Positions 2,492-58,237 of a stretch of DNA of 64,000 nucleotides are shown here, in pieces. The notes beneath the pieces are model-generated. The model saw only the letters and a list, made by a program, of their open reading frames with translations. It made no database searches and was not told where the DNA came from. This stretch comes from Psammoneis japonica (taxonomy: Eukaryota), in the NCBI GenBank assembly GCA_008632985.1, contig QPGO01000252.1, positions 1-64,000 on the forward strand, given 5' to 3'. The stretch's first letter is position 1. The number at the start of each line of letters is the position of its first letter. The position numbers and the translations under genes were made by a program.

Positions 2492-4239
2492 CCATTCATT
2501 CCGCGTCTCACGTCTCACCCGCGGATATCCCAGTCGTGCATGATTCTGCGTCCGTTCATCTGTCCCATTAGACGCTTGCACAATTGTTGTTGTTGTTGTT
2601 GCTTTTCTTTTCTGTCATGAGTGGTGATAACATCTGTATTCAAGGCTCACTTCTGATGTACACTCCAAGTGAACAGAGTCAATTACAGCAGAAGAGGGCA
2701 ATGTTCACCACAAGTGCACATTTGCTCCAGCACCCTGGGTGCTGGTCAGAAGGAAGAAGTTTGCCCGACTCTCTCTCTCATGGCCGGCCATTTTGACACA
2801 TTGAGCCCCACACAGGTCCACGCACCCAGTCTTTGTTAGAAACTTCCCACTCAAACATTTACAAAGTCATCAACAGCAGAGATTTGTGACAATGGCCTGC
2901 TTCGTGCAGCATTCTTTGAGTGCACCGCCTTCTGGACACACAGCTGTGCAACAGCCCTGCGTGCTTGCTGCCAGCCGACTTTTTGTTGTGGGTTGCTGAG
3001 ATGAGAATTGCAAAAGTTTTTCAAAAGCTGGCATGAAACAAATGGATGCTCAACACTTTGCCTTGTCAACCCCACTTGGAGTTGCTTTTCCTCACAAGTG
3101 CTGCAGCAAGGCTCTGCACTTCAGGTCTTGGTTGTGCACTCAGTGTCAATGCTGCCTGCTGCTTCAATGGGTTCAGCTGCTCACAAGCTCAGTAAAACAG
3201 TGTGGCAAAAACAATGGGATCAAAGATGCTCACCCTGTCATCAATCAAAGCCCATCCCATCCATCTGACCTGCTGGACAGAGCGGCCAGCTTTTGGCTTG
3301 CTTGTGCTGAAAACAAGTTCACATGCCATCTGGTTGCCATGCAGGCCCTGACAATGTGCAGCTGGTCTGCATGGGAGAGCAGCTTTCACCTCCTGCTCAA
3401 TGATGAAGCTACTCAACTCTGCTCCCTTGGGCTTGCCTCCCACTCTTGCTCCAAAAGTGCTTGATGAGCTGACTGCAGATCATCTCCTTTTGCACTGGCT
3501 TTCTGATCAATCTCTTGGCATCTTCTGATGCATTTGCACTGTTGCAGCAAAATCATGCAGTTCACCCATGGCAGTGTCCAGATGCAAAACTAACTTGAAA
3601 TGTGGAGAGTTGAGGGAAGTGCCACCTTGAAACACCCGCTCCTTGTTGTGGTGTGGGTGGTGTGCACTGGTTCATGCAAAATTGAGACACACAGACAAAA
3701 TGATGAGCTCCCTCTGACACAATTGCCACAACACAATGACAAGAAGGTGCAAAGATGAGGGCAAAAAAGGACCAAACGCAACAGAATTGTCTTCATGCAG
3801 TGATGCTCAGAGTGTTTGGCATGCACAATGTGAAGGAGGGGATAAGAGCAAGAACCCGTGTCAATGCTGACGTCAATGCAGATGCAAGAAGCTAGAGTGT
3901 GAGGCGCGTTAGATGGCCAAGATTGGTTTCTCATTGTTTCTTGAGCAGTGGGAGGATCTGCATAAATTCCACATGACCTGCCTTTCTCATTTGCAAAAAC
4001 ACACCAAACAGGACACACACACATTTCCCATTTTTCACAGTGCATTTCAAAAGATGATCATTGCACCAATGATGAATCATCGCAGCAAGGTCATGAAATT
4101 TTTCAAAGAGCATTGCCATGGCATGAGAGGACATTGCAAAGAACAAGAGAAAGTGAAACAAGGGCAGTGAGAACAAGCTCGGACAAATCATGAGGCAGGT
4201 GCATCATGCAAAACCACTTCTCCCACTCTTCATGCTCCT

Positions 4240-6112
4240 TGCAGAGATGAGAAGAATCAACACAAGGAGGAAGAAAAGTTCATGCACGACCAAGTCATTC
4301 TGCCATCCTTGCCGACAGGTCGTTTTGCACTGGACGACAACATCGCTGATGCATCTGACTTAGAAATTTCATCCTCCAACAAGAGCAACACACTGGATTC
4401 CTTGATTGAACACAGAATTGACATGGAAAATGCAGCACCTTTGAGTTCCACTGCTGGCACCTTTTCAGTCAGACCCAGGGGAGTGGTGATTCTGAGAGCA
4501 GGAAGAGATCTGGACAGCGTGACTTCAATGCCCACAGAATCAGAGACAATTCTTCTGGCCCCATCTGCCTCCCCCCGGCGGCAACATGCGTGACAGCACA
4601 ACCTTGCTTGTTGAAGCTCATTTGGCAGAATTGACAGAGAATGTGGGTGAGGCACAGGCACAAATGTTGTGGCTTGAGAAAGAGAACATGCAGTTTCAGA
4701 ATGTGTTGCCTCTCACAGAGGCAGAAGTGGCCCAACTGGACAAGGATGCAGTGGATCATGACACTGAAGAAGCAAGACATGGAGCAGCGGCCTTCATTGG
4801 GGATGTCTGGGAAAGCACAGTTGCAGATTCATTGTTGCTGTGGTGCCAGTGGCATTGACAATCACTGTGGCTTCAACAGCAATTGTGTTTGGAATTGCCA
4901 GAGGAGATGCCACATCCACAACACCAACCAAGGTTCTGTTGCAGCTGGTTGGCCAAGTCTTGCATGGAAATGCTGCAAATGATCACTTTGGCAGATCCAT
5001 CTCCTTGTCTTGCAACAGAAGGGCCTTGGCAGTGGAAGCATTTGGTTTTGCATCCATCTTTCATTTCAATCAAGCCATCAACACCTGGGCTCACATTGGC
5101 AAAGACTTGGTTGGGACAACAGAAGACGATGGATTTAGCTTTTTGATTTTCTGTTTGTGTCAATGATGATGGCTCAATTCCAGCTGTTGGGGCACCACGG
5201 AATGACACCCTGGGGAGCAGTGCAGGCCAAGTGCAAGTGTTTGAATGCAGCAACTCCACAAAAAGTTGGGTTCAACTTGGGTGCAACATCGTTGGAGAAG
5301 CATCTTTTGAATTGTTTGGATTTTCCGTGTCACTGTCAGAAGTGGGAGACATTTTTGCTGTGGGAGCACTTCTTGGTGACATGGAAAATGGCAAAGATTC
5401 TGGATCAGTTCACTTGCTTCAACGCAATGGCAACACAACCTTGTGGGAACCCCTTGGGCAGCAATTGTTTGGTGATGCTGCTGAGGACGCATTTGGCTGT
5501 TCCGTGTCCCCGAGTTGACAGGGGACAATTGCTGGCATCTGGGCAGATCTAAATGATGCAAAATGAGAAAAGATTCAGGCCAAGTGATTGCACATGAATG
5601 CAACTCTTTGTTGTCAAGGTGGGACTTGTTGGGTGATCAAATCAATGGGCAAGTGGAATTTGGTGAATTTGGGACATCTGTCTGTCTTGATGAGCTTGGT
5701 CATGGCAGTCAGTGCAGCAAAGGCAAGCCCAAGAGTCTTAGTGTGTGAGCATGACCACGCAACATCAAGTTGGGCACAGTGTGGACAAACTCTCTTGTCA
5801 GAGCAGAGTTGGAGTCATTTTGGTGAATCTGTGTCCTTGAGCTCCAAAGGAAATGTCTTGGTCATTGGAAGCAGTGGGCATGACCTCAAGGGAAGAGCAA
5901 AAGCAGGTCAAGTCACAATCTTTCAATGCAACAGCAGTTCATTGAAATGGACTCAACTTGGAGAACCATTCAATGGCAAGGCTGAGCCACATTGGTTTGG
6001 TTCGTCAGTGTCCTTGTCAGCTGATGGAAGCATCATTGGAGCAGGTGTGACTCAAGTCTTTGGCAATGAGGGCAAAGGTTCCGTGTGCACATTCTTTGCA
6101 CATTCTGTCTAA
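4240..6112 (+). pseudogene. Decayed host-type membrane protein gene with FG-GAP/integrin-alpha-like beta-propeller repeats
   Basis: Repeats spread over several frames: VGQVLHGNAANDHFGRSISLS, LFGFSVSLSEVGDIFAVGA, HFGESVSLSSKGNVLVIGSSG, WFGSSVSLSADGSIIGAG. A TM-like segment (VPVALTITVASTAIVFGIA) lies upstream. Multiple frameshifts; Tyr expected in these repeats reads Cys or His (VFECSN, AHECNS, VCEHDH, IFQCNS). 5' boundary approximate. Confidence 0.8.
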
Positions 6113-6777
6113 ACTCACAAAGTTATGATGCTTTTGCCTTGGGGCTAAAATGTCAAATGGCATGGCTTCAATTCTTCATCTTGTGAACATGTGATTGTTG
6201 CCTTCATCTTCAAAATTTGCTGCAGCACTTGTTGTCCCATGGGCATTGTAGCTTGCCTCATTCTTTCCTGAACTTAGCAGCAACAACAACAGCATCAGCA
6301 GACCATCATGAGATGGTCAACCAATTTCACATTTGACCATGCACAGCACATTGAAGATGAGTCACAGAGCAGCCTCTGATTCTCTCATGGCATCACCACA
6401 ACCTGACTGACATGAGTTGTAAAATGAGTGACTTGAAAGGAACATGTAAAATCACAAAGTGTTGATGTTTTTGCCTTGGCTAAAATGTCAAATGACATGG
6501 CTTAAAATGCAAAATTCCTCTCAGTCTCACAGTGTGAACATGTGATTGTTGCTGTCATCTTCAAATTTTGCTGCCACACTTGCCATCCCATGGGTGTTGT
6601 GGCTCACCTCATTCTTTCCTGTTCCAGCAGCAGCAACAACAGTGTCAGCCAATTTCACACTTGGCAGCTGGCACAGCACATTCTTGAATGTGAGTCACAG
6701 AACAGTCTAAATTTCCCTGATGGCATGACCACAATCTGTCCAAAATGAGTTGTGAAATGTGAGTTGCTTGAAAGGAA
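6111..6777. repeat. Diverged tandem duplication, ~337 bp unit x2
   Basis: 6111-6447 aligns with 6448-6777 (shared gccttgg..ctaaaatgtcaaatg, gtgaacatgtgattgttgc, cctcattctttcctg, cttgaaaggaa). Differences include gggCAttgTAgctTG vs gggTGttgTGgctCA. Confidence 0.85.
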
Positions 6778-9374
6778 GACGAGGCCAACAGGGGAAAAGA
6801 TGCCACAGAGTCATGAAAGATGCAAAAAAGCTTTGGTTGACAGGTGCCATTGTCAGTCCCTTCCCAGTGTGCAACAACACCCATGAATGTGACATTGTTC
6901 AGGCATGTGAGTCAACAAACAAATGCAGCATTTGTGCTTTCTGCATCTGTTGCCAAGAGTTTTGCCCTTCTTGCAAGAGTTCCACCCATGGCAACATCAT
7001 TCTGCCTTTGCTTGGCAAGTCTGCACAAAGTTGAGGTGCATCTGGGAAGTGTTGTCAAGCCATTTTGGCACAGCTGTGCCAACAAGGTGCTTTCAAATTG
7101 CACATGCTGTCTCACTCTCTTGACAATCATGGTGGCCAAATGAAGAACATTTGTAGACCAAGTGTTGTTCGGCCATGCTTTCGGTGCCATTTTGATGTCA
7201 GCCAAGCTGTTCACATGAGAGCCAATGGCCAGGGAAGGAGGTGGCAGGGTGGTGGGTGGGTGTGATGGATCGATGGGGTGGGGTGAGGCAGCAGGCAGCA
7301 CAAAAAGGATGTTGTGAAACACAAATGATGGGAAGCAGGTGAGCATTGGCTGAAGCTGTGGCATGCCCTGGGGAGGCCACTTTTTGAGTTTGGCACATTT
7401 TGGTGTGTGGTGGTTCTTCATTGGAAGGGGGGGGGGATGAAAGTGAAAATGACCCATTGCAAAGGAGACACAGCAAGACACCCACAGTCAACACAGTTTT
7501 TGTTGTCAGAGAAAATGAAATTGTTGGCATTCTTCAAGGGCAGAATCAAGGAGGTTGGTGCAAATTGTGAATTTTGTGAGAGGGAACAAGTTTGAGTGAT
7601 GTGAGTTGTGCACGTCAAAGGTGGCATCAAATTGCAATGGCCCACATGTGCTGAAAGCAACACAAGCAATGAAGTGCTGGCCAAATGAAAGGAGATGTCT
7701 GAAAAAGAGAAAGAGAGAGAAGAGAGGAGGAAGGAGATGGGCACTGAAGAGGTTGTTGAGTTGAGAAAGCAAAGGAAGAAAACCAGGGAAAAGGGGGAGT
7801 GAGAAATGTGCTGCATCAGCCACACATCCTGTGGCTGCTCTGATTTTGCTTTGGCCATCTGAAAATTGAACAACAGAAGCAAATTGCAAAATCATGTTTG
7901 CAGAGAATGGCTGTCACAATCCCGTGGCATTTGGAAGAGTGTCAGCACAGTGCCCAAGCAAGGCAGCAAACAATGTGAGACAAGCAACAGTGCTGGTTCA
8001 CAGTTGAGGCAATGAAAAAAAGGCTGAAAACAGAAAATCAGAAAAGAAGGAAGACAAAAGGCATGAAACAGGGTTTTGACTTGAAAAATCTTGTGGCTCC
8101 CATGATTGGAAAGGATGATTGACGCACACCCGGAGACATCAAAAATTGTTTGATGATGCAACCATGTGGAGTTGAGGATGGAGCAAAGAAATGTGCAGTG
8201 TGCTGTGATGGCATCAAAGTGAAGCAAAAGATGGAAAAGGGAATGCCCAGCAGTTGGCACATTTGACTTTGTTGACTCTGGCTGGTGAAGAAGATGTGGA
8301 CAGTAGCCACAAAAAAGGAAGCTGAGAAAGAAGAAGGGGGTGGCAGAAGAAAAAATGCAAAAGGAGAAATGTTTGCTTTGACAAAAGGAAAAATTGGTGG
8401 GAGAAAATGGCCAATGTTGTTGAAGCTGACAGATTTTGGAAGTGACATTTCAGTGGGCTTTGGTGGTGTTTGATCCAAAGGTTCTTGGTGGCAACAGTGT
8501 GGGGTTGTTGCAACACTTGAAAGCTCTTTCTTGCACAAGCTTTGCCAGCACAGAAAGCTGCTGCAGAAGAAAGAAAAGATGCTGATGCCAGCTAGAAACA
8601 CAAAAAAACAAGGCCAACAGGAAGGAGCAACAAGAAACAATCTGAGAAAAAACAACAAAAAGTTGTTTGTGGCCATCATGGGACAAAAATGGCAGAGGCA
8701 ACAATGAAAAGAAGAGAGAAAAGAGACGGCTTGTTCTGTGAGAATGTGCTGAAGTTTGGGGTGTGTCATGTGCACACTGCATGGACAAGAATGTTGATGC
8801 AAGAGAGACAAGGGCAAAGAGATGGCAATGGCAAGTGACAAAGCCATGTGCTTGTTTGTCCTTGAGAGAGCTGCTGGTGGTGCACCACATGGAACTTCAA
8901 GTGACTGCAAATGAAGAGCAGCCCAAGGGCCAAAAACAGGCAAAAAACCAAGAGAGGCAAGTGCCAGCACCTGTCCACACATGAATCCAAAAAGACACAG
9001 AAAATCACGGAAAGATGAGTGTGCATCAAGAGGCTCAAAAATTTGCCAGGCGGCAATCAAGCATGGCAAAAGAGATGGCACATGAAGTTGCTTTTGACAA
9101 GACATTTGCAGAGCAGAAGAGGAGGAGTGCAAGTGTGCCACAAAGCTTGACAAAAACAAAAAAGACAAAGCATGACTCCAGTGGCAGCACTGACAAGGGC
9201 AGAGATTGAGGTGCTTGCATCAGATGAGGAAAATGAAAATGGCAGCCAGTTGGAAGGCAACAGTGTCAGCACACAAAAACAACACAACAAAGTGAAAGTG
9301 AAGGTTGGGATTGGTCTGACACCAGTGGCACACAGTTGAGACATTCCACTGGCACAAAAGTGCACAATGTCACA

Positions 9375-9861
9375 TTGCTGCAACACTTGGATCAATGCAT
9401 TGTTGCTTGAAATCAAATGGGCTGCACATGAGCTCCAGCTCTGGGTGGAGCTGTGCAGTGGGGGGCTGCAACATTTCACATTTTTGATGCCTCACACACT
9501 GCGCAAAACCCACGCACACACTCTTGCATGACTTTGGACTCATTTTGTGTGCCAGCCAATGTTGCAGGCTGTTTGGCATCCACTGATTCTGACAAATTTG
9601 TCATTTGCACACAGATGCTGACTGTTTCAGGGAAAATCCTGAGCCATGGGAGCTGTTGCTTGGCAACACGCAGCTGTCAGAGGAGGTGCAAATGTGCCAA
9701 CTCAACACATGATGTGATGATGTCATTGCACATTGCACCCACCTGCATCCCATCGCAGCACTTGCAAAGGGGTGCATTGGAGCTCATTTGTGGTGGTGGA
9801 TTTTGGTGAGTTCTTGCCACACCACAATGGCTGCAGAAAACCTTGTGTTGACTTTCTGGGC
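9375..9861. repeat. Copy of a dispersed ~1 kb repeat family, interrupted by the Copia insertion (continues at 15525-15690)
   Basis: 9375-9577 aligns with 20527-20726. 9773-9861 joined to 15525-15690 aligns with 21240-21470. Confidence 0.75.
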
Positions 9862-10150
9862 TGTCAGAGAGCAAGAAGCTCATGGGGCTCTCAACACAAA
9901 TCACAAGACTCAAGTTGATTCTGCAAAAAGGAAAGAAATGATGATCAACTGACAAGTGTCATTTGACAAGTGCAATGATTCAAGTTTGGCAAGTGTCAAT
10001 TTGGGTGAGAATGAAAAGAGAGATGCAAGCAAAATTGGTGGTTTGTGATGCAGAAACAGCAAGAAAAGTGAGTGAAAAAAATTTCCAGATGTTTTCACAT
10101 GCTGTCTGCAGGTCACAGGCAGTGTCAGTCAGTTGTTGGATTGTCCAACA
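9862..10150 (+). repeat. 5' LTR
   Basis: tgtcagagagcaagaagct ... ttgtccaaca, colinear with 15223-15524. Confidence 0.9.
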
Positions 10151-13100
10151 TGACACATGTTGATGCTTTGGGGCAACAATCTACCTGAGATAGAGCAAGA
10201 AACCATGTCTGAAGAAGTGATGAAGGAATCCACTTTGCTGTGGAGCACAAGAGAGTGGATTTTGAGATTTTTGCAATGAAACTGGAGGCATTCAAGAGCA
10301 AGCAAGGCTGCAAGGAAGCAACAGTGATTGATGTTGGTGACAAGCTCATCAAGAAGACAGAGAAAAGGAAGACAAGAAAATCTGCAAGCTGAGCACAAAG
10401 TCCTGCAGCAAGATCATGAAGGCAATGCCAGACAGCTGGGTTCAGGTGGCTGAGAATGCTGGTGGAGAGCACCAGTCTGCTTTCAAGACAAAGGAATGGT
10501 TTTGAGGGAATGTCACTTGGAACAGGTCAAGACCAATGATTGTCAAGCTTTGAATGCAAGCATGAAAGATCTGGATCCAGGGAACTTCTAAGATGTCCTC
10601 ATGTTGCATCTTGGCAAGTTGGGAGACATCAATGTGAAGTGGGGAGCAATCAAGCCAGAGTGCAAGAACAACAAATTACAGCAGTTGAAGACTGAGATCC
10701 TGTTGAAGATCCCAAGGGATGATGACAACCAAAAGTCATTCAAAGGTGAGTTCTGGAAGGAGAAGGCCATGGAAGCCACTTTGTGTCAGGCAGCACTGTG
10801 ACAGAGAGTGAAAACAGTGTGGGCCTTTAGGAGGTTTCAAAGGTGCCAAGGAAGGCATGCACAAGATGCTTGTGAGATGCAGGCACCAGAGAGTGTGGCA
10901 AGATGGGTTGCAAAGCCAAGTTCTGCACCAACAAGAACAATGACAAGTTCAAGTCCAAGAAGTTCAGTGGTGATTGCAGTTTTTGTGGCAAGTGGGGGCA
11001 CAAGGAGAAGGATTGCTTCAAGAAGAAGAAGCAAAATGGTGACAAGAATGTGGAAGAATCAAACAAGGGAATCCTTGGAGCATTTGTGGAATCTGCAAGT
11101 GAGGTTGAGGAGTGGCAAGACAACACCCCTTCTTCCTTCTTTGATGACTGGTTTTCCAATTCTCAAGTTAGAACAATGATGGGCAGACACCCACTCCAGT
11201 GATGAGACCAACAAGTGTGCATGGCTTGTGCACTGTTGTGGCATGAGTGGAACAAAATGCCAGACAATGAGTCCAATGATGACACAAGTGTGCCAGGAGA
11301 AGTTGACATCACCACATTGTTGGTCAACATCATGAGTGATGAGGACAAAGATGACAGAGGTGGCACGCCAGAGCTGGAACCTTCAGACAGTCATCATGAT
11401 GCAGACTCTGATGATGGCAGTGACAGAGAGACTTTGCCAGAGCTGTCATGTCATGAAAAATCAAATGACAGTGATGATGAAGACAATCTTTCAGGTGTGT
11501 TTTCTCTTTCATGAGACATCAATGGAGACAATGACACAATCCCTGAAGTTGCTCCTCATGTGCTGAAGTTGTGGTGTGATGCAACTGCTTGTGATGGCAT
11601 TGATGATGACACACAGAGTTGTGACTTCAAGGGGTTGAGGCAGCAAAAAGTGTCAAGAGCAGTGGAGACAAGAAACAGCTTGATGCACTCTGTCATCTGT
11701 TCCAAGCAAAGACAATTGAAGCATTCCAGATTTGATGCCTGGATGCTGTGACAGTGATTTAGATGACAAGGATTCTGTTGTGGCTGACCTGATTCATTTG
11801 AATGGAGTGATGATGAACAAGTTGAGTGGCAATGCAGCAAAACTGTCGCTGGACTCTGGGTCCACAGCTCACACCAAGTGTTCATCAAAAGGCATGAGGA
11901 ACTTTCAAGAGGTGAGTGAGGTCATGAAGGATGCCCACAAGGGCACTTCTGTGGCTAGACTGCAGGGAGAGTTCTCTTTTATGAGGAAAGACTGGGGCAA
12001 GACAGTGGCGACAATGGAGGTTTATGTCCAACCAAACTTCTCCCACAACATTGTGAGTCTCACTGAGTTTTTTGAGAAGGGCTGTCACTTGAGTTCTAAG
12101 ATGGGCCCAAAGAAAGCAATTGGTTTGGTTTGACCAGGTGGCACCAAGTCACTTTTTGAAAAATCCACAAAAGATGGACCACACTGCATGGAAGTTGAAG
12201 AGGTGATGTGTTGTGATGGAGAAGTGGCCACACAGCTCTCCACAGACAAGAAAAAACCATCTGAGAACAATGTCCACGTGAATTGCATGCACTTTCTTCT
12301 TGTGCGTGAGCCACATGGGGAAGACCACAACAAAGAGAAAATGTCAGTGGGTTTTGGCTGGAAGTTGACCAGAATGCCTGCTGTGCACTAGTTTTCTGTG
12401 TGAAGGCAAAGGTTGCTGCAAAGAAAACAGTCAAGCCAAGTGCCAAAAAGGCAAAAAGGCCTGGACAACACTTGCATTTGGGTGCATCAGGCCTGCACAA
12501 GGCAACTTGGGGAGGAATTGCTGTCATGTGATGCTGGCTGATCAGTGCACTGACAGGCTTTGGTTGTTCTTCAAACCACCAAAGCAGGCCAATTTTGCCA
12601 AGGATGTCATTGAGTTGAAGGGGAAAGGTTTCACTGTTGAACACTTGGGCTTGGACAATGCACCCAAGTGGGTGGCATTGGAGCCAATTTGCGGTGAGTT
12701 GGGCATCATGATGGAGTGTGCTGCTGGACCACATGCACCACAGTTCAATGCAGCTGTCAAAAGAGCTTTTGCAGTGGTTCAAAACATGGCCTCTGCTGCC
12801 TTGAAAGGAGCCAGCATGACTGAGGCTGATCAAGCTTTACAGTGGGCAAATCCTGTTCAAGATTGCATGCATGTGTGCAACCTGGTCCCACAAGAAGACT
12901 GAGGCAATGCATGCAAACCTTTTTGGGGAAGAGTCTCCTGTTGAGCCAGAAGATTCAATTGCATTTGGGGGGACAAGGGCTGGATGATGAAGCAAAATGA
13001 GATCAAGGCCAAGTCCAAGACAAGGCTGAGGAAGTTTGATGTGCATGACATGCACCTCAGTGCTCAAGCAACACCTGTGTTGTGCTCAAGGCTTTGACAG

Positions 13101-15222: not shown

Positions 15223-15524
15223 TGTCAGAGAGCAAGAAGCTTGTGGGACTTGAGTCATGATTGAGTCCTGACCAGTGCTCAAGTTGATTCTGCAAAAAGG
15301 AAAGAACTGATGATCAGCCAACAAGTGCTGTCATTTGACAAGTGCAACGATGATCGCAGTTTGACAAGTGTCAATTTGGGCAAGAATGAAAAGAGAGGTG
15401 CAAGCAAAGCTGGTTTGTGATGTGCAAGCAGTGTGAGAAAAGTAAGAAGAAAATTTTTCTGGATGTTTTTGCATGCTGTCTGCAAGTTGCAGGCAGCGTC
15501 AGCCAGTCATTGGGTTGTCCAACA
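15223..15524 (+). repeat. 3' LTR
   Basis: tgtcagagagcaagaagct ... ttgtccaaca, directly after the polypurine tract. Confidence 0.9.
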
Positions 15525-41417: not shown

Positions 41418-41725
41418 AATATATTGCTTGTTCTTCGTTTAGGGCCTAGAAGGTCACTGCTGCTCGTACTGTACACTGCACTTCTCTTTAGACTATGGGT
41501 GCTATCAGATTGGCCGTTTTTGGCAGATAATCATGGATGGAGCGACGAGGAGGAGAGTCGCCTCAAAAACATTGAAATACATAATAACGGCTACAATCAA
41601 TTCTTATATTTTCATATACGTTCATTTTTAAAAACAAATGAATAATCATTTTTTAAATGTAACAATTTGAACAACAGTCATAGTGTCGGTCGTCGCGGCT
41701 TTCAACGAATTCTTTTTCAACGGAA

Positions 41726-44700: not shown

Positions 44701-44945
44701 TCAACAAGAACATCCTCCATCAGGACAACAAGAGTGCCGTCCTGTTGGAAACAAATGGGCACAAGAGTGCTGGGAAGTGGTCCAGAGCATTCAATGTTTG
44801 ACATTTCTTTGTCACAGATCAGATCAAATGGGGCAACTTGAGAGTGCAGTGCTGCCAGACAGATGACATGCTGGGAAACTTTGTGACAAAGCTGTTGCAG
44901 GGTGAGAAGTTCCAAAAGTGCAAGCAAGCCATCATGGGCTGCTGA
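41726..44945 (+). mobile_element. 5'-truncated, internally deleted CoDi-like Ty1/copia retrotransposon remnant
   Basis: Zinc knuckle CHCCGKTGHKSPEC (41729-41770), protease IILDNGST, integrase HVPKVGRNTQTVKE. The RT N-terminus (MFLTEKQDG..SASPATSLE) runs directly into RNase H (HQGHPVNKNILHQDNKSA..FFVTDQI..TDDMLGNFVTKLLQGEKF). No LTR pair found. Confidence 0.88.
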
Positions 44946-47642
44946 AGAGAAGGCAAGTGCAACAGATGCACAATTAGATGAGAATTCTGACACATGTGGG
45001 TGAAAGATCCCTGTCAAATGAGAGGCCAGCAGCGCCTCAGTTCCAATGAAACACAATTCTCAACTAAAGAGACTTGTTTTTTGAGAACATGTTGACCATG
45101 GAAGAGGTCATTCTCAATGTTGATGACATGTTTAATGGTGCACTCGACACATTGTGCAATGCGGTGATGCAACCATGGCCTGTGGATTGCTGGCTTAGGA
45201 TCAGAGACCATGAGACTTTCAAGCATCTGGTGAACTGCAACAAGTTCAAGTTTCTTGTGGCAGAAGGAAGACTGCAAAAATTCTGATGCACATGGGTAAA
45301 AGATCCCTGCAACCTGGAATGGGTCATGAACTGGCAATTTTGACCAGTGTCTCCATTTTGTTGTGGCGATGATTTTTCACACTTCATGTCAGCCACTGAC
45401 CACAAGTTGCCATGATGCACAACCTGACTTGCCATGCCACCACATTGCTCAGAAATGGCCTTCTGGCCATTGGGAGGAGAGGTTCAAAAAGTTGGACAGA
45501 AACAGAAGATGGGACAAGAGAACATCTGCCAACAAGTGCATGATCAACACACTGGCTGCATCAACCCACTGGAAAGTGTTCAACAAGATTGAGTTGCAGA
45601 CAGAGACCCATTTGTTCAATGAGACCTTTTGGATTGCTGCCAACTGCCATTGTTGTGTGGTCGTCAGTCCTGCAAAACAAAAGAACTCCTGGCTGCAGCA
45701 ACGCAGCATGGGAGAGCAGATGAAAGGCACAAACTCATGAGATGAGTGTGCAAGACATGCAAGACATGGTCTCATGATGTGCACGCTTTTGTTTCCACCA
45801 CAACACTGATGATGTCAACACACAATGATCTGACGACAGCGAACAAGATCAAGACATGCAGAGAAGATGTGACCCTGCACAAAGAGAGCTGGCAATTTGT
45901 TGGGAGTTGACCTTGTGAAAAATGAGAGCTGCATCACAGCAGAGATGGCCAATGAGTCAAAAAGAGTGAAGCACACCTCATGGAGAATTGAGTCACAGCA
46001 GGCACAGATGACAATGTGTTTCAGCTTGTTTTCACAGACAAAGATTTCAAAGATTTGCAGCAAAACAACAGCACCAGCAGTTGTCCTTCCTGTGGAATGG
46101 ACAAGAATGGGGTGTGTGGTCCCCTGATGCAGTTAAATTTAACCCAATGTGATGGACAGCCCCACTTTGAACTGGTTCAAGGAATGAACAGAATTGTCTT
46201 TGATGCCAAAAAGTTGCCAGATTTCTTCCATTGCAACACCCACAATGTCAAGCTCAAGACCAGATGGGTTTGTCACCGCACGCAGCACATGTGAACTTGA
46301 CCCCAGAAGTGATCAATGGTTGAAATGTGTGCTTGCTGCAAGGTCCGTTTGTTGAGATTTTAAGAGAGAGACTCATCATGCTTTTGTCATCATGCTTTGT
46401 GGAGTGTGTCCGTGGAGTTGCCAACACATTGGATGATGTGGTTGACTGCTCCAACAAGGGAGACAATGTGCCAACCTGCAAGTTTGAAAGACATGAGATG
46501 TCAACTTTGAAAAGCAATGGGTGCAGCCGGCAGCAATGTGATTGATGTTCCCAGCATGGAGCCCTGTTCCAGTTGTCTGATGCCAAGCAACAACATCAAC
46601 ACAATGCAAGTGGCAGGAGTGTGTTGGAACAATGAGTTCTTTTGATGCCTGGATCCAAGACATGTGTGACCCAGAGTTGTTGAAGAGAAGACAATTGATC
46701 TCTGATGTGGATTGGAAGAACACTTCTTTAGTGTGTTCAATGATCTCATCCACATTGATTGACAAATTTGTGTTTTTTTGTCTCACTCTTTTTTGGAGTG
46801 AATCATTTGGCTCACATGTTTGTTGATTGGTGTCAAGAGATGCACGCATTTCAGCAGTTGCAGAGTTTACATTGTTGACACCTGGGCACACTGCAGCCAC
46901 TGGAGTTTGCCAAGGCAAGTGCAATGAGTGGCACAGGAGACATCACAGGATTCCCCTTTTGGTGACATTGACTTGCTGGTTCAACACAGCTCAACTTCTG
47001 CAGCACTGAGCACAAGTTCTTGGAGCTGGTGCCTGCCACTGTCAGGTGTGTCAAGCCTGTCACATGTCTTTCAGAGGAAGTCAACAAAAGGTTTTGCTGA
47101 GTCACAGTTTGGCCTTTTGTCTGCTTCAAATTTTTTTCAACTTGGCTCTTTTCAGGATCTCCAATGTTGCTCTCTTGTGCACCCTTCACATTTTTGCCCG
47201 TTGCCATTTTCAATGCAAGGTCCCCAACAAGTGCCTCGTTGGTCTGTCAACAAGCACCAAGCTCCAATTTCTTGACATGTGATCAAGGTGCAACTGAAGG
47301 CATCTGCAATTGGGTTCTTGGGTGGCAGAGTGCAACCACCCAGCACAGTGGGCAATTTGAAGGAGAGCAAATGAATGCATGCCACGCATGTGAGTGACAC
47401 TGGGTCCTCACCTCCTGTGACTGGATGGCTGCAGTGGCCACCAGCAGTACAACTGAGAGTGAACAGGAACCACAAGCGATGTGGATTGCCACCAGCTACA
47501 ACCAGAGAGATGTGCCATTAACACAGATTGTCTGTTGGTGTCAGTGTCCCACTCTTTCTGTGTCGCTTGTGGTTGTCCAAGTACAAAGCGGGCATGCTTT
47601 GAGCAAACGATTTGGGGAATTAATTATTTCATGTGATGTGCA

Positions 47643-49758: not shown

Positions 49759-51489
49759 ATAGCATTTAAATAAACGTTTAAAAACGAAAAACCCGCGCGA
49801 GCCGGCAGCAAAATCTCAAACAACTACAGTACATACGGTATATACAGGGGGTTACCATATATCCTGGGTTTTGTGTCGGTTTCGTAACTCAACGTTTCTC
49901 AACGCGCGAACGACCCTGACTCGACCGGTCACAACAAACAAAAAACAGCAACCAACATGGCAAAAGACCGGCGCATGGCAAGCATCTCCACCGATGCCCC
50001 AACAATGCACACCTGCATTGTAACATGTGTTGCATCCTTTTCCCTCACTGGTCTTTTGCAGCCTCCTTCAGGTGAAATGGCAGGTGAAATGGGGGGTGGG
50101 CATTGTTCGCAAGGTCGCGCTGATGACGGTTGTGGCTGGAAGCAAAAAATCATTGCAAAGGGTGTGCCAAGTCAAGCACAGTGATGGTGTTTCCTTGCTG
50201 GCACAACCACTTTAACTTTTGAAACTTTGCCACTTGCGTTGAGTTGTCGTCACCAGCCAAGAAGCACAAACAGCAGGGTTGGCATGCACCTTGCCTCCCC
50301 TGCATCTGCATCTGACCCAGTGGTTTCTGCTGGTGCTGCTGCTGCTGTGGACCCTTGCTGCCTTTTCCCTGATCATGACACTGCTGTTGATGAGAGCAGC
50401 AGCACTGCACACATCAGCACTTCCCCTGCTCACGACGTGTTCCAGCCGCACGTGAACCAAATCGTGCACAAAAACGACATTTGCGCGATTTTTGCGCGGT
50501 CCCTAACTTACGATCGAACTTTCACCACCAAAAGTATAGATTTATACAAATATAAATGTTTTGCAACACTAACAAGACTCGTGTGAGTGTTGCAATATCA
50601 TTCTTATTGTACTATCTATGTTTTTCATTGCGTTAAAAGACTCGTAACACAACGGATGATTTTCGGCGAAAATATTGCCGTTATTTGGGTGTTACCTAAA
50701 TACATCTTTCTACGATGCGACTTGGTAGGTTTTCTACCTACAAAGAAATCTCAGTATAATTCTACTGACGTACAATCAGCATTGAGTCTACTGAGGAAGT
50801 TTATGATACATGTCCCATGAGGACTTGAATACCCCAAAAAAAACTATTTAAATGTTCATACTCCAGACGCCTATAAAAGCCAATCCGCTTAAGTATTTTA
50901 TATGAAAATGCTCCATACACTAAAAGATACATAATTTATATTCAAAATCGATTGTCGTTTTGTGCGTCACCTGGGATGGAACACGTCTCACAGCTCCTTT
51001 TCTCTGATGGCAGCGCTGCTGGCGCTGATGTCACCAGCGGCTCAGTTTGGTTTTGCCGTGTAATTTCTCAAAATTCCCTGGGATTACCACCTTTTACCCT
51101 GTTTTTCCATGGGAAGGGTGAATTCCTGGGGAATCGCCACGAATTGTTGTTCGTTGCACATGTGCTGAATGCATGAATGAAAAACAATGCATTGGCAATT
51201 CCCCGTGCTTCCCTTCTCGCACATTTCTGCGCGTTCTACATGCCGGGACATGTGCGGAACCACACACCAGATGTGCAACAATCAACCATCGACCGACCGC
51301 AGCCAAAAATGGGCAACACGCCATGGAGCGTTCATGCCCCATTTATGACGGCTCTTGTCAAACAAAAATGACACCAGTCAATCTAGTGAACAAGATTACG
51401 ATCAACAGTGTGAAGTAAAAAATGAACAGAAGTGTGATTGATGGTGTTGAGCAGAAAACCAGTGCATTGATCGTTGTGCTTGTTTTTCT

Positions 51490-51910
51490 TTCCTGCGGTC
51501 ACAAATGTGAGCCATGCGGCATTTGTGGTGCAAAGTTCAAGGCAAAAGTAGAACTGCACATGGCTGACAAAAATGTGGCGGATTGAATGGTCATGGTTTT
51601 TGTTTCAATTGACACATCTTGTGTGCAGAACAAAGCGGGTCGTTTGGAATCACTCTGTTGTCGTGCAGCCACAAATGCAAACCATGAGGCATCTGGAGCA
51701 AAGGCCAAGGCAAAAGCACAGCCTCACAAGGTTAGTGAAAATGTGGCAGATTGATTGACAATGTTTGTTCTTCCCTTTGACCAATCTCATGTGCAGAACA
51801 CAGTGTGTCATTTTTTCCTTCTTGTGTCGTGTGGTCACAAATGCAAACCACAACAGCTCTGGAGCAAAGGCCAAGGCAAAAACAGAGCCACATGTGAGCA
51901 ATGTTAATGT
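51490..51910. repeat. Degenerate tandem repeat, ~168 bp unit, about 2.5-3 copies
   Basis: cacaaatg...gcaaag..caaggcaaaa...aatgtg recurs at ~51500, 51670 and 51836. Confidence 0.75.
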
Positions 51911-54900
51911 GCATGATTTAATGGTGAAGTTTGTTCTTCCCTCACTCCACCACAAGGGGCCGCTTTGTGTCGATTTGCATCCGTCATGGTCGTGCATCAT
52001 TTTTTCCGCGCGCCGCACCGGTCGCCATGAGGATAAAAGCACACCCGCCTGTCTGTGGTTGCCGCACATTGCCGCATTCCATTCATTTTTTGTTCCCCTC
52101 CCCTGAGCCCCCGCTGAATTACCCTCATTTCCCGGGAATTCCCCAAAAGGGCAAGGCAATTCCCCCTTGCCCTTGCCATTTTGGGGAATCCCCAAATGGC
52201 TAAAACCAAACTGAGACCATCGGTGTTGCGGACATTGGCCCTTCCCCTGCCACAGCACTGTTGATGGTGCTGCTGCCAACACATGACCAGACAAGTGCTT
52301 CTGCTCATCTCCATGTCCCCCTGCTTGCTGAACAAAATTTAAGGTGCTTCCTGCACTGTTCCTTTTTGCCAGCTTCTCTGTGTGAGAAGTCCATTTTCAA
52401 CCGTGGCTTTTTGTCAAGAAGTTCAATGACAAATGGTCTGAGCTCACCAAAAAAGAGAAATCTGCTCTGGTCAACTGAGGTGGGCTGGACATTGACCACA
52501 TTCTTGAGTGTGTTTCCAACATTTGCTGCTGGCCACATGATGTGAAGTGCCAAGCTTGTTTGTTGCACAAGGGTGAGTGTGGCCATGGCCACCAGTGTCA
52601 GATTGATTTTTTGATGAGCAAATTGAAACAGCTCTGCCAAGCTCTGGGCATGGCTCCTGCCATTTGTCTCTGTGATCCCAAGATGTTTGTGCATTGCAAT
52701 GACACAGCAGTGACTCACAATGGGAACCAAGAAGATGCTGGTGCTTTGGCAAAAGACACAGACTGGCATGGTGTTCATGACAGAATTGAGTGTGGATGTG
52801 AGTTCAATGCCATTCCCAAGAAGAAAGCAGTCAAACAGCAGAAACCAACCCACTGCTGTGACATTGGCTTTGATGGTGGCCATCGAATGGATGTTCTTCC
52901 AGTTCAGATGGACACAGCTGTTCCAGCCTTCTTCAAGCCATGTGGCTGCCCAAGTCAAAGTCGTCAAACTTCTCAAACACCCATCAGGCCAACAATGTGT
53001 TCATTGATGCTGTGATTGAAGCTTGAGATGCCACAGGAAAATCAGGCACCCTTTGTCCCCAGGAGCAGCATGCATCTGTTTGATGATCCCTCTCACCCTC
53101 AGTGCAATGCAACATTTGGCAACACCTTGCACCCAAGATCAACACAAACTGTTCATGTTTCAGTGTGACCTGCAAAGTTCCTGGCTTTGATTGGGAGCAT
53201 CATGATGGCTCCCAGCTTGTGTGTGAGGTGTGCCTCTGTCTGTGTTTGACTTTCCAGCTTAACTGTGTTAAGATGGTTTTGGCACAATGTGCAATGAACC
53301 CAGCAAAATGTTGGTTGAGTCTGGTGGGGCAGGTGCACTCACAAAAACACAAAGTGCATTCCATCCGGTGCCCTTGCTGAAAGCTGAAAAAGCAAGGAGT
53401 GTTCTCTTCCCATTGTCAGAGTGGGGTGCAGCATCAACCTTAACAACATGAGGCAACATGTGGAACAATTGCTTCTCATCCCAATTGTCCATGCAGAACC
53501 AGCAAAAAGATTGTTGCAAGAGCACTGCTTGAACAAATCGCACTCTCCCATTGGCGCTGATCTAGAATGTCTGAGCACAATTGCTCCAAATCTTTGACTT
53601 ATCTTTCTCCATCAACACGTGCTTTGCTGAACAGCAAGGCAGACTAGAAATGAAGACTTTGCTCACAGTGGGGAGCATGGCCAGTGTTGTCTCCACTTGC
53701 AAGGATGCAGCAATCAACGACATTGCATTTGCAACTTCATTGCCCCATTGAGGAGAGGTTCATCCAACTCAGGCAGCAACAGAGCAAGGTTTTCTTTGTC
53801 TGCCTCTCTCATGACTCATTTGATTTGTGACCACATCAGAAAAATGTCCTTGTTCACCAAAATGCAGTTGCAAACTTGACCAGCACACAAATGCCCCTTC
53901 CTTGTGCATTTCATGGTGTGGTGATCTCTGACACACCAATGTGTTGTGCCTTCAAAGTCATTTCTTTGGGAAGATGCCAGAAGTGATTGGCATGACAAGA
54001 CCAACCTTTTCCACACATGAAACAATGACAAACTGGTTGCACTTGAAGTGAGTGTTCCATCCCCACAAGTTTCTTTGTCATCAATGGACTTTGTGGCTTG
54101 GTCACAATGTGGCTCTTTCTTGTGGCCTTGCTTCCAATTGTTGTGATGATGATCATCATGCAGAGAAGACTTCCGGCAATTTGGACAGAGTTGCTGGGGT
54201 GAAGAGTCTGCCAAGTGTCTTTGCAACATGTGTGCTTGAGATGGCACAAGTGTCTGTGCACAACCTGTTGCATGTCACATTGTCTTTGCTGCAGCCATTG
54301 GTGGAGGTGGGCATTTGCTGTGTCAAAATGGACAAGTCTGCCTTGCACAGATTGTCCTTTGAGCTGCCACTGAGATGATCATCCATGAAACAAGATGGCA
54401 GGACACCCTTGGTTGCAGAATCACAAATGGGCATGAACAAGAGAGCTGTCCCAGCCCAACTCCAACCCCAAAAACATGGTGTCAACAACACCAAGCATGT
54501 CACACATGTTGTTGCAGCTGCAAACCATGGGATCATTCCCTTCCTCCCCCACATTGAAAATGTCACCACCATCTTGATGCCTGTCATCTCCTGCATCTTT
54601 GGGATGGTTTTCCTTTGTGTCTGCACAACACAATCCAAAGCAGCAGCAATGGCAGAACAATGTGCATTTGTGGTGGCAGCAAGCAGCAAGCAAGGGTTCA
54701 TCATCGTCCTTGCCTTGCCCTTGCCCTTGTCATCAGATTGTTCATTGGAATCAGGCCCACATTGAGAGAGTGCCAGCATCAGAGAGATGTCCTCATTGCT
54801 GGAGCAACACAAAATTCATCTGAGCAAACAGAGTCATTGTTCAAGTCCAGTGAAAAATGAGTGTGCCATGGTGAAAGCACAAGTGAAGAATGGTGCAGAA

Positions 54901-55512
54901 TGGGGCACAACTGAGAATTCTTGATGATGCAATTAAGTTGGCATGCCACCAAAAACAGTGGTTTTTCATTTCACATCATCATTGCATGCATTCCTGGAGT
55001 TGAGCATGAAAAGGTCAGTTGGGACAAGTCTGTGACTTGGCACACACCCACTGTTGACCCCCAACTGGGATGCTGGCAGGCATTTTTGGTGATTTCTCTT
55101 TGAATTTTTCCACCGGGCATCAAATCCATCAATTGAATGGAAATTGGAGATTGGGAACAGAACTCACAAGTGCTCCCTGCCACATCACATGCACCAGTGC
55201 AATGCATGTCCACTGAGAGTTCTTGGGCCCCTCTTCCTTGGTGGCAGCTGACACTGGCTTTTTGGCAGTGGCAGACTGACTTGGGCCACTTGGCAACAGC
55301 ATCCTGCCTCTTCTGCCTTGCTCCTCTGAGCTGCAGCCTGAGCAGTCATTGCAACCCTGTGTCTCAGGAGCAGCAAAGGCTCTTCTTTCTCAGCCTTGCT
55401 TGCAAATTGCCAGCTGGAGTGCTGGCTTTCTGTTGAATGCTAAATGTGCAGAGTTGCAGCAGTGCTGGCCAACAAAAAAGACAAAATTGCCACTGTCACC
55501 ACAAGCCGGCAC

Positions 55513-55630
55513 AAGATCCTTGGCAGTGACCACAAAGAGACCTGGACTCACTGCTTGCCACACAGCAGCTTAAGATCCTTGACAGTGACCACAAAAAGAC
55601 CTTGAGTCACTTCTTGCCACACAACAGCTT
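55513..55630. repeat. 59 bp tandem duplication
   Basis: aagatccttgRcagtgaccacaaaRagacc...cttgccacacaRcagctt at 55513 and 55572. Confidence 0.85.
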
Positions 55631-57789
55631 TCTTCTTGGGAGCAACAGGGGCATCAGCAGGGCTGACAATGTTGGAAGACAGTGGCTCACATTTCCCCCC
55701 AAACAGAAGCTGCTTGAACTTTGCACTGGGAGGCTGCTCCTGCTGACCTGGTGTGCTGCATGGCTGCAAACTCAACTTGGGCAAGGGCACAGCTTTTGGA
55801 GTGTTGTTTTGCCACTGACAACTCTGGAAGCATTCTTCTCTTGAGAACACTGATGCCTGCTTTTGCAGATCTTCCATTGCTCTCTGCAAAAAAGAGAGGG
55901 ATGCAAGAGAACAAAAAAGACTGAAAAAGCAGAGGCAAAGGCCCAAACAGCTGCAGTGCAAAAATGTGGCAGCCACCATGACAACATGGTGGCTGCCACA
56001 CCTGGGGTTGTGGCAGCTCTCATGATGAGAACTGTGACCACCCCAGCACTCATTTCCATGGGTTTTTTGCACTTCTTTCCTTCCTGTTTTGTGCTCCTTT
56101 GGCATGATCACATCCAGTCTTTTCAGACTGATTGGCCACAGAACTTTTCCATGATCTTTGCTTGGACAGCATGGGATCAGGCAGCTGCCAAAGAGGTTGA
56201 GAATGACAAAGGGAACCTGGGAAATTTGCAGGTTTGAACTCTTCTGAGATTCCAGGCTGGCGCCAATGCAGACAGCAAAGATTTTGAACCTTTGCAACTT
56301 TCTACATGTTGCTCTTTCCACTGCCTCAACAAAGCCATTCTTTGAACTTTCAAACTTTGCTTGAACAATTCCTCACAAACAAAAAATGTCACATTGAGCA
56401 TGCACTGCATGTGCTGCTCTTGAGAACTTGTGGGTCATGGCAATGCAGGGTTGTGCACTCATTTGTCCGACATGGAGAATGAAACACAAAAAATAAAATG
56501 ACAACAGAGACAACTGCCAGCACTTGCAAGGGTTTTTAGGGCAACAATGCTGCAACCAAACAGACTGCTTGACAACAATTCCATCACAATCATTCTCAAT
56601 CCTCTGGAAAGGTCAGATGAAAAGAGAAGCATTGTTGTGCACTCAGCAATGGATGTGATGCAAGGTGTTGCATGTTGTTGAGTTAAAAGATGGCATTGGA
56701 ATTTGAGAGCAATGCACAAAATGTTGATTTTTGTGGGCAACGTGGAGCTGTTTGAATGCACTCAAACACTTCTGGGGGCACTGTGAAGTTTCAATTTTTT
56801 TTCATCAGAGCTTTTTCAGATGGCTCAAACTTTTTTTGTTGATGACAGAAACAATCTGCAAAGTGCACACATGGTCAAAAACATTGCAGGAATGTCAGAG
56901 AATGCAAAATCTTGTTCTTTTTCTGACTCTCAAAAATGTGAGACGAGTTGTCAACATGGTTCTTGGCACTTGCTTGGCAGACATTTTCTGTGCTTTTCAC
57001 GACATGAAGGCCATCTCCCTCATGCCACCTTTCTCAGAAATGGACAGCACCAACCCAAAAAAAAAACAAACTCATTTGCACTTCTTGGGTTTTGGGAGAT
57101 GCAGCAACTGCGCCAATGGAGCCTTTTCTGTCCATCACATGCACCCCTGAATCTGCTGATTGGCTGCAAAATGCACACCTGGGCAAGTTTGAATGACAAC
57201 AAGCCAAGCACACTTGCACCCACCTTTGTTGGCAAGCACCATGATTGTCACAGAAAATCTGTGCTATTTTGAAGCTTGTGCACCTGTGTTCAGAGGACAA
57301 ACAAAATCAGCATCTGCTCTGACATCTGCACAGCATCTGTCTTTCCTTCTCTGCAATGCAACACAGCAAGATCTGCGTGGACCTGGGCCATGCAAAAGGG
57401 AGAAGTGGCGGATGGAAGGATTCTTTGAAGACTGCACAATCCACCTGGTTCATGCCAAATCCAACCCAGTTTTAGCCAAGTCAGCAAAAATCTGTGCTTT
57501 TTGACAATCTGCACATGGAGAGCACAGGAAAATTGGGCAGCTGTGTCACTTTTTGGACATTTGTTGAAATGAGGTGGCCAAACATGTTTCAATGAGGCTT
57601 GCATGGGTTTTGTGTGTTGGCAACAAATGAAGTTGCTAAAAATGTCAGCACTGGCAATTGTGCCAAAAATGAACATGACAAGAGCTGCTCAACCTTGAGT
57701 GGAGCAGCAAAGAAAAACCAGCTTGAGAGTGCAGCAAATTTCATCCTGGCTGCACTCATTGCAGAGAAGAGTGCAAGCCCAAAACTTTC

Positions 57790-58060
57790 CAATGCAGAGT
57801 GGAAGAAAAAAATGGTTTCCAAAAAGACACAAGTTGGACAATTCTGCAAGTCATCCAAGTTCACTGCTGGGCATCGATCATGTCAACACATTGTTGCCAA
57901 GATGCAAGCAGTCAAATTTGGTCAGCTGTCCAAGCTCCACAACAGGGACAGTGTTTGTTGACAGGTTGTCTGCAAGACAGAATTCTGCCAGTTCTGTAAG
58001 TTGCCCAAGCTCTGTTGGAGTGGTTCCTTCTATTTTGCTGTTGCAAAACCCAAGATCACA
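57790..58060 (-). pseudogene. Decayed partial duplicate of the adjacent LRR coding segment
   Basis: Aligns with 58330-58590; translation DLGFCNSKIEGTTPTELGQLTELAEFCLADN...LGQLTKFDCLHLGNN followed by stops. Confidence 0.85.
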
Positions 58061-58237
58061 CACACACCAAAGCAGGTTATTGTGATCAGTGTCCAGACAC
58101 AAAAACAAGTGATTTTCAAACTGATGACATAAGAAAACGGACACCAGCAAGTCAAACCAATCTTAAAAGCTTGCATCCACTCTACCATAGAAAAGGATTT
58201 ATTTGAAAAACATTTTTTCACATCGCACAGGGTTTCT

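Follow-up and report, generated by a model that had tools for sequence, protein, structure and literature searches.

Sharply bounded DNA blocks of a diatom-like genome in which nearly all TpA and CpG dinucleotides have turned into TpG and CpA

The first 64,000 bp of contig QPGO01000252.1 from the genome assembly of Psammoneis japonica, in the following called the window, contain genes of normal composition, among them a COPI alpha-subunit gene and two copies of a GT47/RXYLT1-like gene. Also present are a Ty1/Copia long terminal repeat (LTR) retrotransposon, a second Copia-like relic, a degraded FG-GAP-repeat gene and a diverged tandem array (Table 1). More than half of the window consists of dead DNA of the transposon or pseudogene type in which nearly all TA and CG dinucleotides have been turned into TG or CA. 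An initial annotation, made from the letters of the window, had proposed that a domain-restricted hypermutation of TpA to TpG or CpA, opposite in direction to the repeat-induced point mutation (RIP) of fungi, acts here alongside CpG decay.

Over the whole window the observed/expected ratio (o/e) is 0.22 for TA and 0.45 for CG, values that represent a mixture of two sharply separated states. Eight depleted blocks with a pooled length of 35,754 bp were called by simple segmentation and compared with a remainder of 26,947 bp. In the pooled blocks only 113 TA (o/e 0.05) and 176 CG (o/e 0.09) are left; CA (n = 4,041, o/e 1.83) and TG (n = 4,177, o/e 1.88) are enriched, and AA (1.19), TT (1.26) and AT (0.80) are still common. 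The corresponding values of the remainder are 0.48 for TA, 0.91 for CG, 1.30 for CA and 1.29 for TG. Since about 2,490 TA are expected in the blocks from their base composition, a chance origin of the deficit is excluded. Per kb of block about 77 TA and CG are missing and about 68 TG and CA are extra; thus, losses and gains match as expected if both palindromic pyrimidine-purine (YR) steps have turned into CA or TG. The blocks range from 0.8 to 13 kb with a similar floor of about 3 TA per kb throughout. Their borders are sharp to about 200-400 bp and the genes alongside are normal in composition, in agreement with the claimed restriction of the TpA loss to domains. The TA counts of the initial annotation (one in 4201-5100, none in 13501-14600) were reproduced, and the degraded motifs on which it had relied (CVDD, HQDNKS and *HFF) were located again.

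Table 1. Blocks, border zones, elements and control genes of the window
Feature	Position	Strand	Basis or remark
Depleted block	1..871	.	3 TA, 4 CG in 871 bp; runs off window start
Depleted block	2972..3755	.	Segmentation
Intermediate stretch after block 2972-3755	3756-4485	.	TA 6.8/kb, CG 16.4/kb
Depleted block, largest (13 kb)	4486..17491	.	43 TA, 62 CG
Depleted block	20182..23308	.	9 TA, 26 CG; at right edge (22501-23500) CG recovers before TA
Depleted block	32925..39872	.	19 TA, 26 CG
Depleted block	41957..47432	.	20 TA, 37 CG
Depleted block	52271..53468	.	4 TA, 4 CG
Depleted block	53690..58033	.	12 TA, 14 CG
TA-only border zone	17001..18000	.	No RTAY; CG already normal
TA-only border zone	19712..20181	.	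TA 4.3/kb, CG 54/kb; open reading frame with 0.6% Tyr
TA-only zone	50939..52270	.	RTAY-free; CG about 25-45/kb
Ty1/Copia LTR retrotransposon, 5,666 bp	9859..15524	+	LTR pair, motif order, reverse transcriptase relatives
Copia LTRs	9859-10150 and 15220-15524	+	Self-comparison
Copia gag zinc knuckle	~10981	+	Motif
Copia protease DSGSTAH	11852	+	Motif
Copia reverse transcriptase with CVDD	14211	+	Motif
Copia RNase H	~14740-15100	+	Motif
Second Copia-like RNase H relic	44616..44942	+	tblastn with fetched Copia proteins, E 4e-9; HQDNKS 44718, *HFF 44799
Degraded FG-GAP-repeat gene, host-type, not transposon, in 13-kb block	5100..6020	+	Pfam FG-GAP_2
Diverged tandem array, five units of ~187 bp, in block 32925-39872	38749..39683	+	BLAST and MAFFT
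Tandem duplicate straddling border	57732..58585	+	Copy 57732-58057 depleted, copy 58269-58585 normal
Control: GT47/RXYLT1-like gene, copy 1 of 1.7-kb duplicate	39766..41495	-	Pfam; copy 2 at 47218-48939
Control: COPI alpha-subunit gene, normal composition	26788..30763	+	Pfam WD40, COPA/B, COPI_C

To assess whether the sequence is real, the window was compared with the Logan contigs of a public run (X1), which are built from exact 31-mers and contain 96% of the sampled words of 12500-20500. The four pieces listed, with a depth of 65-72, cover 4001-15299 and 15318-18030 with two substitutions and one indel, and one of them (16305-18030) spans a block border from depleted into normal DNA. Because contigs of exact 31-mers match the depleted letters, an artefact of consensus building or polishing, which the initial annotation had considered, is excluded. 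Judged from the contig statistics (657,387 contigs, 140.7 Mb), the X1 data resemble short reads. At 20104-21541 an X1 contig at full depth (59.9) deviates by three substitutions and nine indels over 1.4 kb, which reflects either a local assembly error or another haplotype; 4001-18030 agrees almost perfectly. An origin of the blocks from mis-called modified bases could draw on these indels and on the probably heavy modification of the DNA in the blocks, but the depleted letters recur in exact-k-mer contigs at about 70x, one of which crosses a border. We therefore regard such an artefact as very unlikely, and the same applies to its counterpart, a composition that was TA-free from the beginning, on which the Copia element bears.

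This element is assigned to Ty1/Copia by its LTR pair, by the order gag-protease-integrase-reverse transcriptase (RT)-RNase H and by its closest intact relatives, which carry Pfam RVT_2; a Pfam scan of its degraded frames, with stops written as X, gave no family at E <= 0.001. It has retained 17 TA, 17 CG and not a single RTAY (R, purine; Y, pyrimidine), and each forward frame of its 5-kb interior contains 1-2 Tyr in about 1,690 codons. A sensitive search that took the degraded RT frame as query yielded 146 relatives, of which 141 with normal Tyr content were used for column counts (a word-indexed protein search found P0131 alone, and none was found in a viral contig collection). In none of the 14 columns with a Tyr plurality has the window kept Tyr (Cys in 5, His in 5, another residue in 4), as compared to 166 of 307 columns retained for all residues except Tyr and Arg (P ~2e-5). 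At strict thresholds, all five Tyr columns are represented by CAY or TGT codons. Conserved Arg is retained in 7 of 10 columns, always as an AGR codon, and two of the three lost ones are now TGG and CAT; 5 of 19 Ile columns are retained and 8 have become Val. DNA of the relatives was available from one metagenome scan at three loci (L001-L003), all of them intact, with a TA o/e of 0.49-0.67, a CG o/e of 0.95-1.21 and 7-15 Tyr in the RT frame. No working polyprotein could be as poor in Tyr as the forward frames of the element, and the intact relatives are normal in TA and CG, arguing against a native TA-free composition. The direction from TA to TG or CA, first proposed from conserved motifs, was thus confirmed by the Tyr codons that now read CAY or TGY, by the normal relatives and by the tandem duplicate straddling the border at 58 kb, as described below.

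Copies that were once identical allow the changes to be placed in time. The two LTRs show 56 differences over 292 aligned positions, and 10 of their 12 double-transition differences are exchanges between CA and TG, leaving 2 for all other classes. Between the units of the diverged tandem array, strict alternation of CA with TG is seen in 11 column pairs, as compared to 5 for the other double-transition classes together. In the border tandem pair the proportion is 5 of 8; moreover, 7 of 8 TA in the normal copy correspond to CA or TG in the depleted copy, and 9 of 12 CG to TG or CA. Such double differences mean that the copies inherited a palindromic dinucleotide and that it was changed in each of them separately, later than the insertion. 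The changes thus arose in place. In every block TG is about as frequent as CA, and changes of Tyr to Cys and of Tyr to His are equally frequent (5 each); thus, both DNA strands have been hit. On timing and on strands the data therefore bear out what had been suggested.

These results contradict an A-to-I editing of retrotransposon transcripts by an ADAR-like enzyme ahead of their reverse transcription and integration. A preference of ADARs for a 5' U, stated in the Discussion of a recent preprint (10.64898/2026.01.13.699255), would suit a TpA target. However, the LTRs differ between TG and CA at the same sites (the 10 doubles above), which dates the changes after insertion; in addition, the strands are hit equally, and a pseudogene that is no retroelement is affected as well, as is a tandem array. 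ADARs also favour a 3' G, whereas the sites with a 3' purine are those that are spared here. We consider editing at the RNA level extremely improbable. Deaminase-based inactivation of retroelements is likewise known from APOBEC3 and ADAR in animals, where it acts on cDNA or RNA prior to integration and marks one strand, unlike the post-integration changes seen here on both strands and also in non-retroelement DNA.

The loss of TA depends strongly on the flanking nucleotides. Survival, defined as the density in the blocks divided by the density in normal DNA, amounts to 0.003 for RTAY, 0.07 for RTAR, 0.055 for YTAY and 0.365 for YTAR; a single RTAY site is left in the blocks, where about 380 would be present at normal density. 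This order does not change if the DNA of the intact relatives is taken as the reference. The survival of CG is nearly flat over all contexts (0.07-0.14), with no marked preference for TCG. The pattern fits a per-strand target 5'-T-A-Y-3': RTAY offers it on both of its strands and RTAR and YTAY on one each, and YTAR lacks it. The products predicted from this rule, RCAR and YTGY, have gained 26.8 per kb, as compared to 11.4 per kb for RTGR and YCAY. The 10 Tyr codons changed to His or Cys did not confirm the rule, a purine preceding three of the five that became His. The excess of A to G and T to C changes is specific to TpA, as had been postulated, and is further narrowed to T-A-Y. The flank rule is a new observation, which is not discussed in the main text of the preprint cited above. 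GC-biased gene conversion was rejected as a cause, as it would yield neither the tetranucleotide rule nor the simultaneous conversion of CG to TG.

The losses of TA and CG can be separated at the margins of the blocks. Both RTAY and CG are lost in 69 of the 500-bp windows (n = 128), neither in 44, RTAY alone in 15 and CG alone in none, where 1.8 windows with loss of RTAY only would be expected by chance. The TA-only windows lie mostly at block margins. At the TA-only zone next to the block starting at 52271, an open reading frame (ORF; 51650-52396, minus strand) contains 0% Tyr, 6.4% Cys and 5.6% His. The TA-only windows, the absence of CG-only windows and the unlike flank dependence show that the TA process is separate from CpG decay, as had been assumed. 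In our reading the CG loss is a process of its own that overlies the TA loss, depends differently on the flanks and extends less far. It would correspond to the ordinary decay of CpG to TpG or CpA by deamination of 5-methylcytosine, which would account for the CG half of the changes (the CG sites of the border pair and the flat flanks) and cannot touch TpA. Diatom transposons are CpG-methylated.

Alternatively, one dual-specificity deaminase could attack C in CpG and A in TpA, both leading to TpG on the strand that is hit. This would explain why both losses occupy almost the same domains, and amphioxus ADAT2/3 has indeed been reported to act on A and C in DNA (PMC10354150). On the other hand, the contexts are dissimilar, with a 120-fold range for TA and flat values for CG lacking a marked TCG preference, the TA-only windows have no CG-only counterpart, and the process observed in Bigelowiella natans (see below) is essentially free of C to T changes (210/211 in its NCLDV region; 10.64898/2026.01.13.699255). 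A single deaminase of this kind is therefore unlikely.

The targets of the TA loss are defined neither by transposon origin nor by repetition. The FG-GAP-repeat gene was recognized by its match to FG-GAP_2 (E 4.7e-15, 55.9 bits at a cut-off of 23, in three stretches) in a frame starting at 4487 with stops written as X. The two GT47/RXYLT1-like copies share 90.6% identity over the full BLAST match and 94-100% per 100 columns over 39875-41172, with lower values beyond, and both are normal in TA and CG. Each copy of this recent duplication lies directly to the right of a depleted block, and its first 100-200 bp are already free of TA and CG. Since a host-type gene was hit and a 1.7-kb duplicate was spared, the process acts domain-wise and is neither specific for transposable elements nor triggered by repetition.

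RIP in ascomycete fungi changes C to T at CpA, creates TpA and is triggered by duplication. The process described here shares with RIP that it is a heritable, context-specific transition hypermutation through which transposons are destroyed and blocks beside normal genes acquire a dinucleotide signature. Unlike RIP, which raises TpA, it destroys TpA and enriches CpA and TpG, thus running in the opposite direction as anticipated in the initial annotation. Furthermore, the 1.7-kb duplicate with its 94-100% identical core is untouched, and of the tandem duplicate at the border one copy is hit and the other much less. Fungal RIP was therefore rejected.

The initial annotation had also stated that no described system acts in this way, which did not hold. 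Localized hypermutation of TpA to TpG or CpA in silent integrated viral DNA has been reported for the chlorarachniophyte B. natans (Mettrop et al., bioRxiv 2026, 10.64898/2026.01.13.699255); the following refers to the main text of that preprint. In mutation-accumulation lines, 231 of 302 nuclear mutations fell into two integrated viral regions, and 230 of these 231 were A to G or T to C, all of them at TpA. The region derived from a nucleocytoplasmic large DNA virus (NCLDV) accounted for 210/211, essentially without a C to T component. The rate was about 6e-7 per site per generation, an elevation of about 1000-fold, and the mutations came in bursts in some lines only. Older targets were recognized as TpA-poor, CpA+TpG-rich clusters with RT and DDE-transposase genes, using thresholds of at most 0.43 for Rho(TpA) and at least 1.52 for Rho(CpA+TpG) over groups of adjoining 1-kb windows. 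An ADAT2-type adenine deaminase was proposed by these authors, as yet unproven. The word CpG has no occurrence in that main text, and diatoms and flanking context are likewise unmentioned there.

By the same measures the blocks of the window reach a TA o/e of 0.05 and CA and TG values of 1.83-1.88 over 0.8-13 kb. The substitutions are A to G or T to C at TpA, as judged from the TGY and CAY codons at former Tyr positions, the 7 of 8 TA of the border pair and the mass balance. They are confined to discrete regions with sharp borders next to normal genes, which enclose the Copia elements, the array and the pseudogene and are presumed to be silent. Thus, both cases share the restriction to TpA, the outcome of TpG or CpA according to strand, the discrete regions (the larger one of B. 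natans being transcriptionally silent) and the footprint of TpA depletion (10.64898/2026.01.13.699255). They differ in several respects. B. natans belongs to the Rhizaria, whereas the host here is a diatom-like stramenopile; the footprint here is saturated, as compared to a TA o/e of 0.45 for the NCLDV region of B. natans; and instead of viral inserts it is a Copia element, a satellite-like array and a host-type pseudogene that are hit here. The lack of a C to T component in B. natans is not paralleled here (CG o/e 0.09): near-total CpG loss coincides with the TpA loss in the window, a point on which the main text of the preprint is silent. Finally, hypermutation was seen live in the mutation-accumulation lines, whereas it is known here from its footprint in the sequence. 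The window is thus a saturated case, from the diatom lineage, of TpA hypermutation of the B. natans type plus CpG decay, of a kind that has been in print since 2026. In a full-text literature search no report of a TpA-depletion signature in diatoms was found, and the B. natans preprint was the one relevant work; a text match for "TpA" in PMC4504042 was discarded since the word in question is "Tpase".

Taken together, we consider it likely that silent DNA of this diatom-like genome has undergone two transition processes in place and nearly to completion, namely TpA hypermutation, for which an adenine deaminase is the best candidate, and CpG decay. In the first process either strand would have A changed to G, 5'-T-A-Y-3' being strongly preferred, and chemically this could be achieved by a deaminase of the cytidine deaminase (CDA) fold, similar to TadA or ADAT2, that converts adenine to inosine in DNA and is directed at silent chromatin. 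ADAT2/ADAT3 and TadA-type deaminases acting on DNA, engineered adenine base editors among them, share this A-to-I chemistry, which results in A to G changes. In their tRNA substrate U33 precedes A34, which gives them a built-in preference for a 5' T, and the site of bacterial TadA is U-A-C, to which the T-A-Y context presumably corresponds. By this analogy a TadA/ADAT2-like DNA adenine deaminase is a tentative candidate for the agent. A Pfam scan of the window found no deaminase among its genes. We infer a targeting of the blocks by chromatin or methylation, and the TpA hypermutation may have a function in defence.

Several observations weigh against this interpretation. The amphioxus enzyme BjADAT2/3, which deaminates A and C in DNA, the latter in a TCG context, is the sole eukaryotic ADAT2/3 shown to deaminate A in DNA, and it prefers GAA instead of TA, and also hairpin loops (PMC10354150). 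The losses of TA and CG share nearly the same domains and the B. natans process has no CpG component, which leaves room for a single shared cause. Outside YR changes, the LTRs still differ at 34 of the 292 positions, and 16 of their 56 differences are transversions; the element is thus old, and the depletion could have accrued slowly and not by a dedicated, burst-like system. In addition, run X1 and its companion runs come from one sample, X1 may underlie the assembly or polishing of the window, and its platform is unrecorded, so that it is not a fully independent control.

The age of the Copia element, with about 12% LTR divergence outside YR sites, also agrees with a scenario without any dedicated system, in which late-replicating or poorly repaired heterochromatin decays slowly and passively through a polymerase or mismatch-repair bias at TpA; the similar floor of about 3 TA per kb in all blocks is as expected at equilibrium. 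If the blocks are near equilibrium, however, the forward rate would exceed the reverse rate by a factor of about 960 at RTAY, about 14 at YTAR and 16-31 at CG, and the value for RTAY is far above known repair biases. Moreover, TA-only zones with intact CG adjoin the blocks, and the same signature arises in bursts and in some lines only in B. natans (10.64898/2026.01.13.699255). Passive decay thus appears to be even less probable than the dual-specificity deaminase.

As A to G on one strand and T to C on the other cannot be distinguished by sequence, the modified base could also be thymine. A TET/JBP-type enzyme would then produce 5-hydroxymethyluracil (5hmU) or 5-formyluracil at R-T-A, of which T-A-Y is the complement, and mispairing with G would lead to T to C changes. 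5-Formyluracil is known to mispair, and the 5hmU of dinoflagellates favours TpA. To our knowledge, no modified thymine of this kind is known in diatoms. The only group that has examined the live process in B. natans proposes, without a test, adenine deamination (10.64898/2026.01.13.699255). We regard thymine modification as improbable, to about the same extent as a deaminase for both A and C.

Adenine deamination at T-A-Y, the preferred interpretation, may extend beyond this genome. Five of the 146 RT relatives are nearly free of Tyr (0-0.5%, median 3.8%), namely P0131, P0186 (with P0276), P0187, P0254 and P0274, which are encoded on JGI/ENA metagenome contigs (P0131 on one from JGI). Where Tyr is conserved they have Cys or His instead (for example LHVDD, ARHVDD, GCHVDD), and the choice between Cys and His is often unlike that in the window. 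These five, from other public data sets, have the appearance of Copia copies hypermutated on their own, and they suggest that the process has acted on related elements elsewhere. Of the 50 substitution differences between the window and the X1 contigs 38 are listed. In the border zone at 18.2-19.5 kb, the window has TA where the second contig set reads TG or CA at 7 of the 26 differences listed, with one in reverse, and inside the blocks 7 of 12 are exchanges between YR dinucleotides, including GTAG to GCAG at 8304. These differences hint weakly at recent activity; the second set could be an allele or a paralogue. It is possible, though rather doubtful, that the TpA hypermutation represents a conserved, chromatin-guided defence, a mirror image of RIP, in which a T-A-Y-specific DNA adenine deaminase operates in diatoms, chlorarachniophytes and the owners of the Tyr-free metagenomic Copia genes, and that it is still active here, spreads a few hundred bases into neighbouring genes and shapes the evolution of host genes.

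Prior to 2026 no cellular process that specifically erases TpA was known, and the single report concerns viral inserts of one chlorarachniophyte (10.64898/2026.01.13.699255). The same signature in a saturated form in a diatom-like genome, on transposons and a pseudogene, suggests that the process is widespread among marine protists as a general means of permanently killing silent DNA. Any candidate enzyme has to account for the per-strand 5'-T-A-Y target, for action on both strands of integrated DNA independent of duplication and for a footprint wider than, and separable from, that of CpG decay. Since some diatoms are genetically tractable, the question of the enzyme becomes testable.

With the loss of TAA and TAG, many long spurious ORFs appear in all six frames of the blocks, and the true frames of transposable elements are interrupted by TGA derived from CGA or TAA. 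Gene callers and Pfam-based annotation of transposable elements are thus both misled in such genomes: the former inflate ORF calls and the latter is defeated. In this window Pfam found no family at E <= 0.01 on the three forward frames of 32925-39872 with stops written as X, and Tandem Repeats Finder missed the diverged array in this block, which was recovered by BLAST and MAFFT.

Beside the same block, the intact-looking ORF 30942-32597 (minus strand, 551 codons) contains one RTAY in its central ~1.46 kb at about 80 CG per kb. This deficit may mean that the TA process has spilled over at a low dose into a gene that is alive, or it may reflect mere composition; it was not counted as spill-over because the stretch is GC-rich and Ala/Ser-rich.

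A second public run (X2), listed as "DNA?", behaves like a transcriptome: a contig with a depth of 56 skips 96 bases with GT..AG ends at 18907-19004, and only the genic part of the compared stretch is covered. The depleted blocks are matched by X2 at four places only, all within 5315-6642, over 18-53 bases and with mismatches; these matches may derive from expressed paralogues of the dead FG-GAP gene. Such a lack of cover does not show that the blocks are silent.

The single N of the window, at 49254, directly follows a 165-bp stretch (49089-49253) that recurs with 95% identity at 49588-49758, and it is probably an assembly gap with duplicated flanks. The kilobase around it is the only one with a TA o/e of about 1.0 and a CG o/e of 1.29 (GC 41%). 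A further tandem array at 17864-18337, with a period of 203 bp, 2.4 copies and 80% matches, lies in DNA of normal composition just outside the largest block. For taxonomic placement the COPI alpha-subunit was used, whose best named relatives are from diatoms (Chaetoceros curvisetus, 65%; Corethron hystrix, 52%) and whose best match overall reaches 71%.

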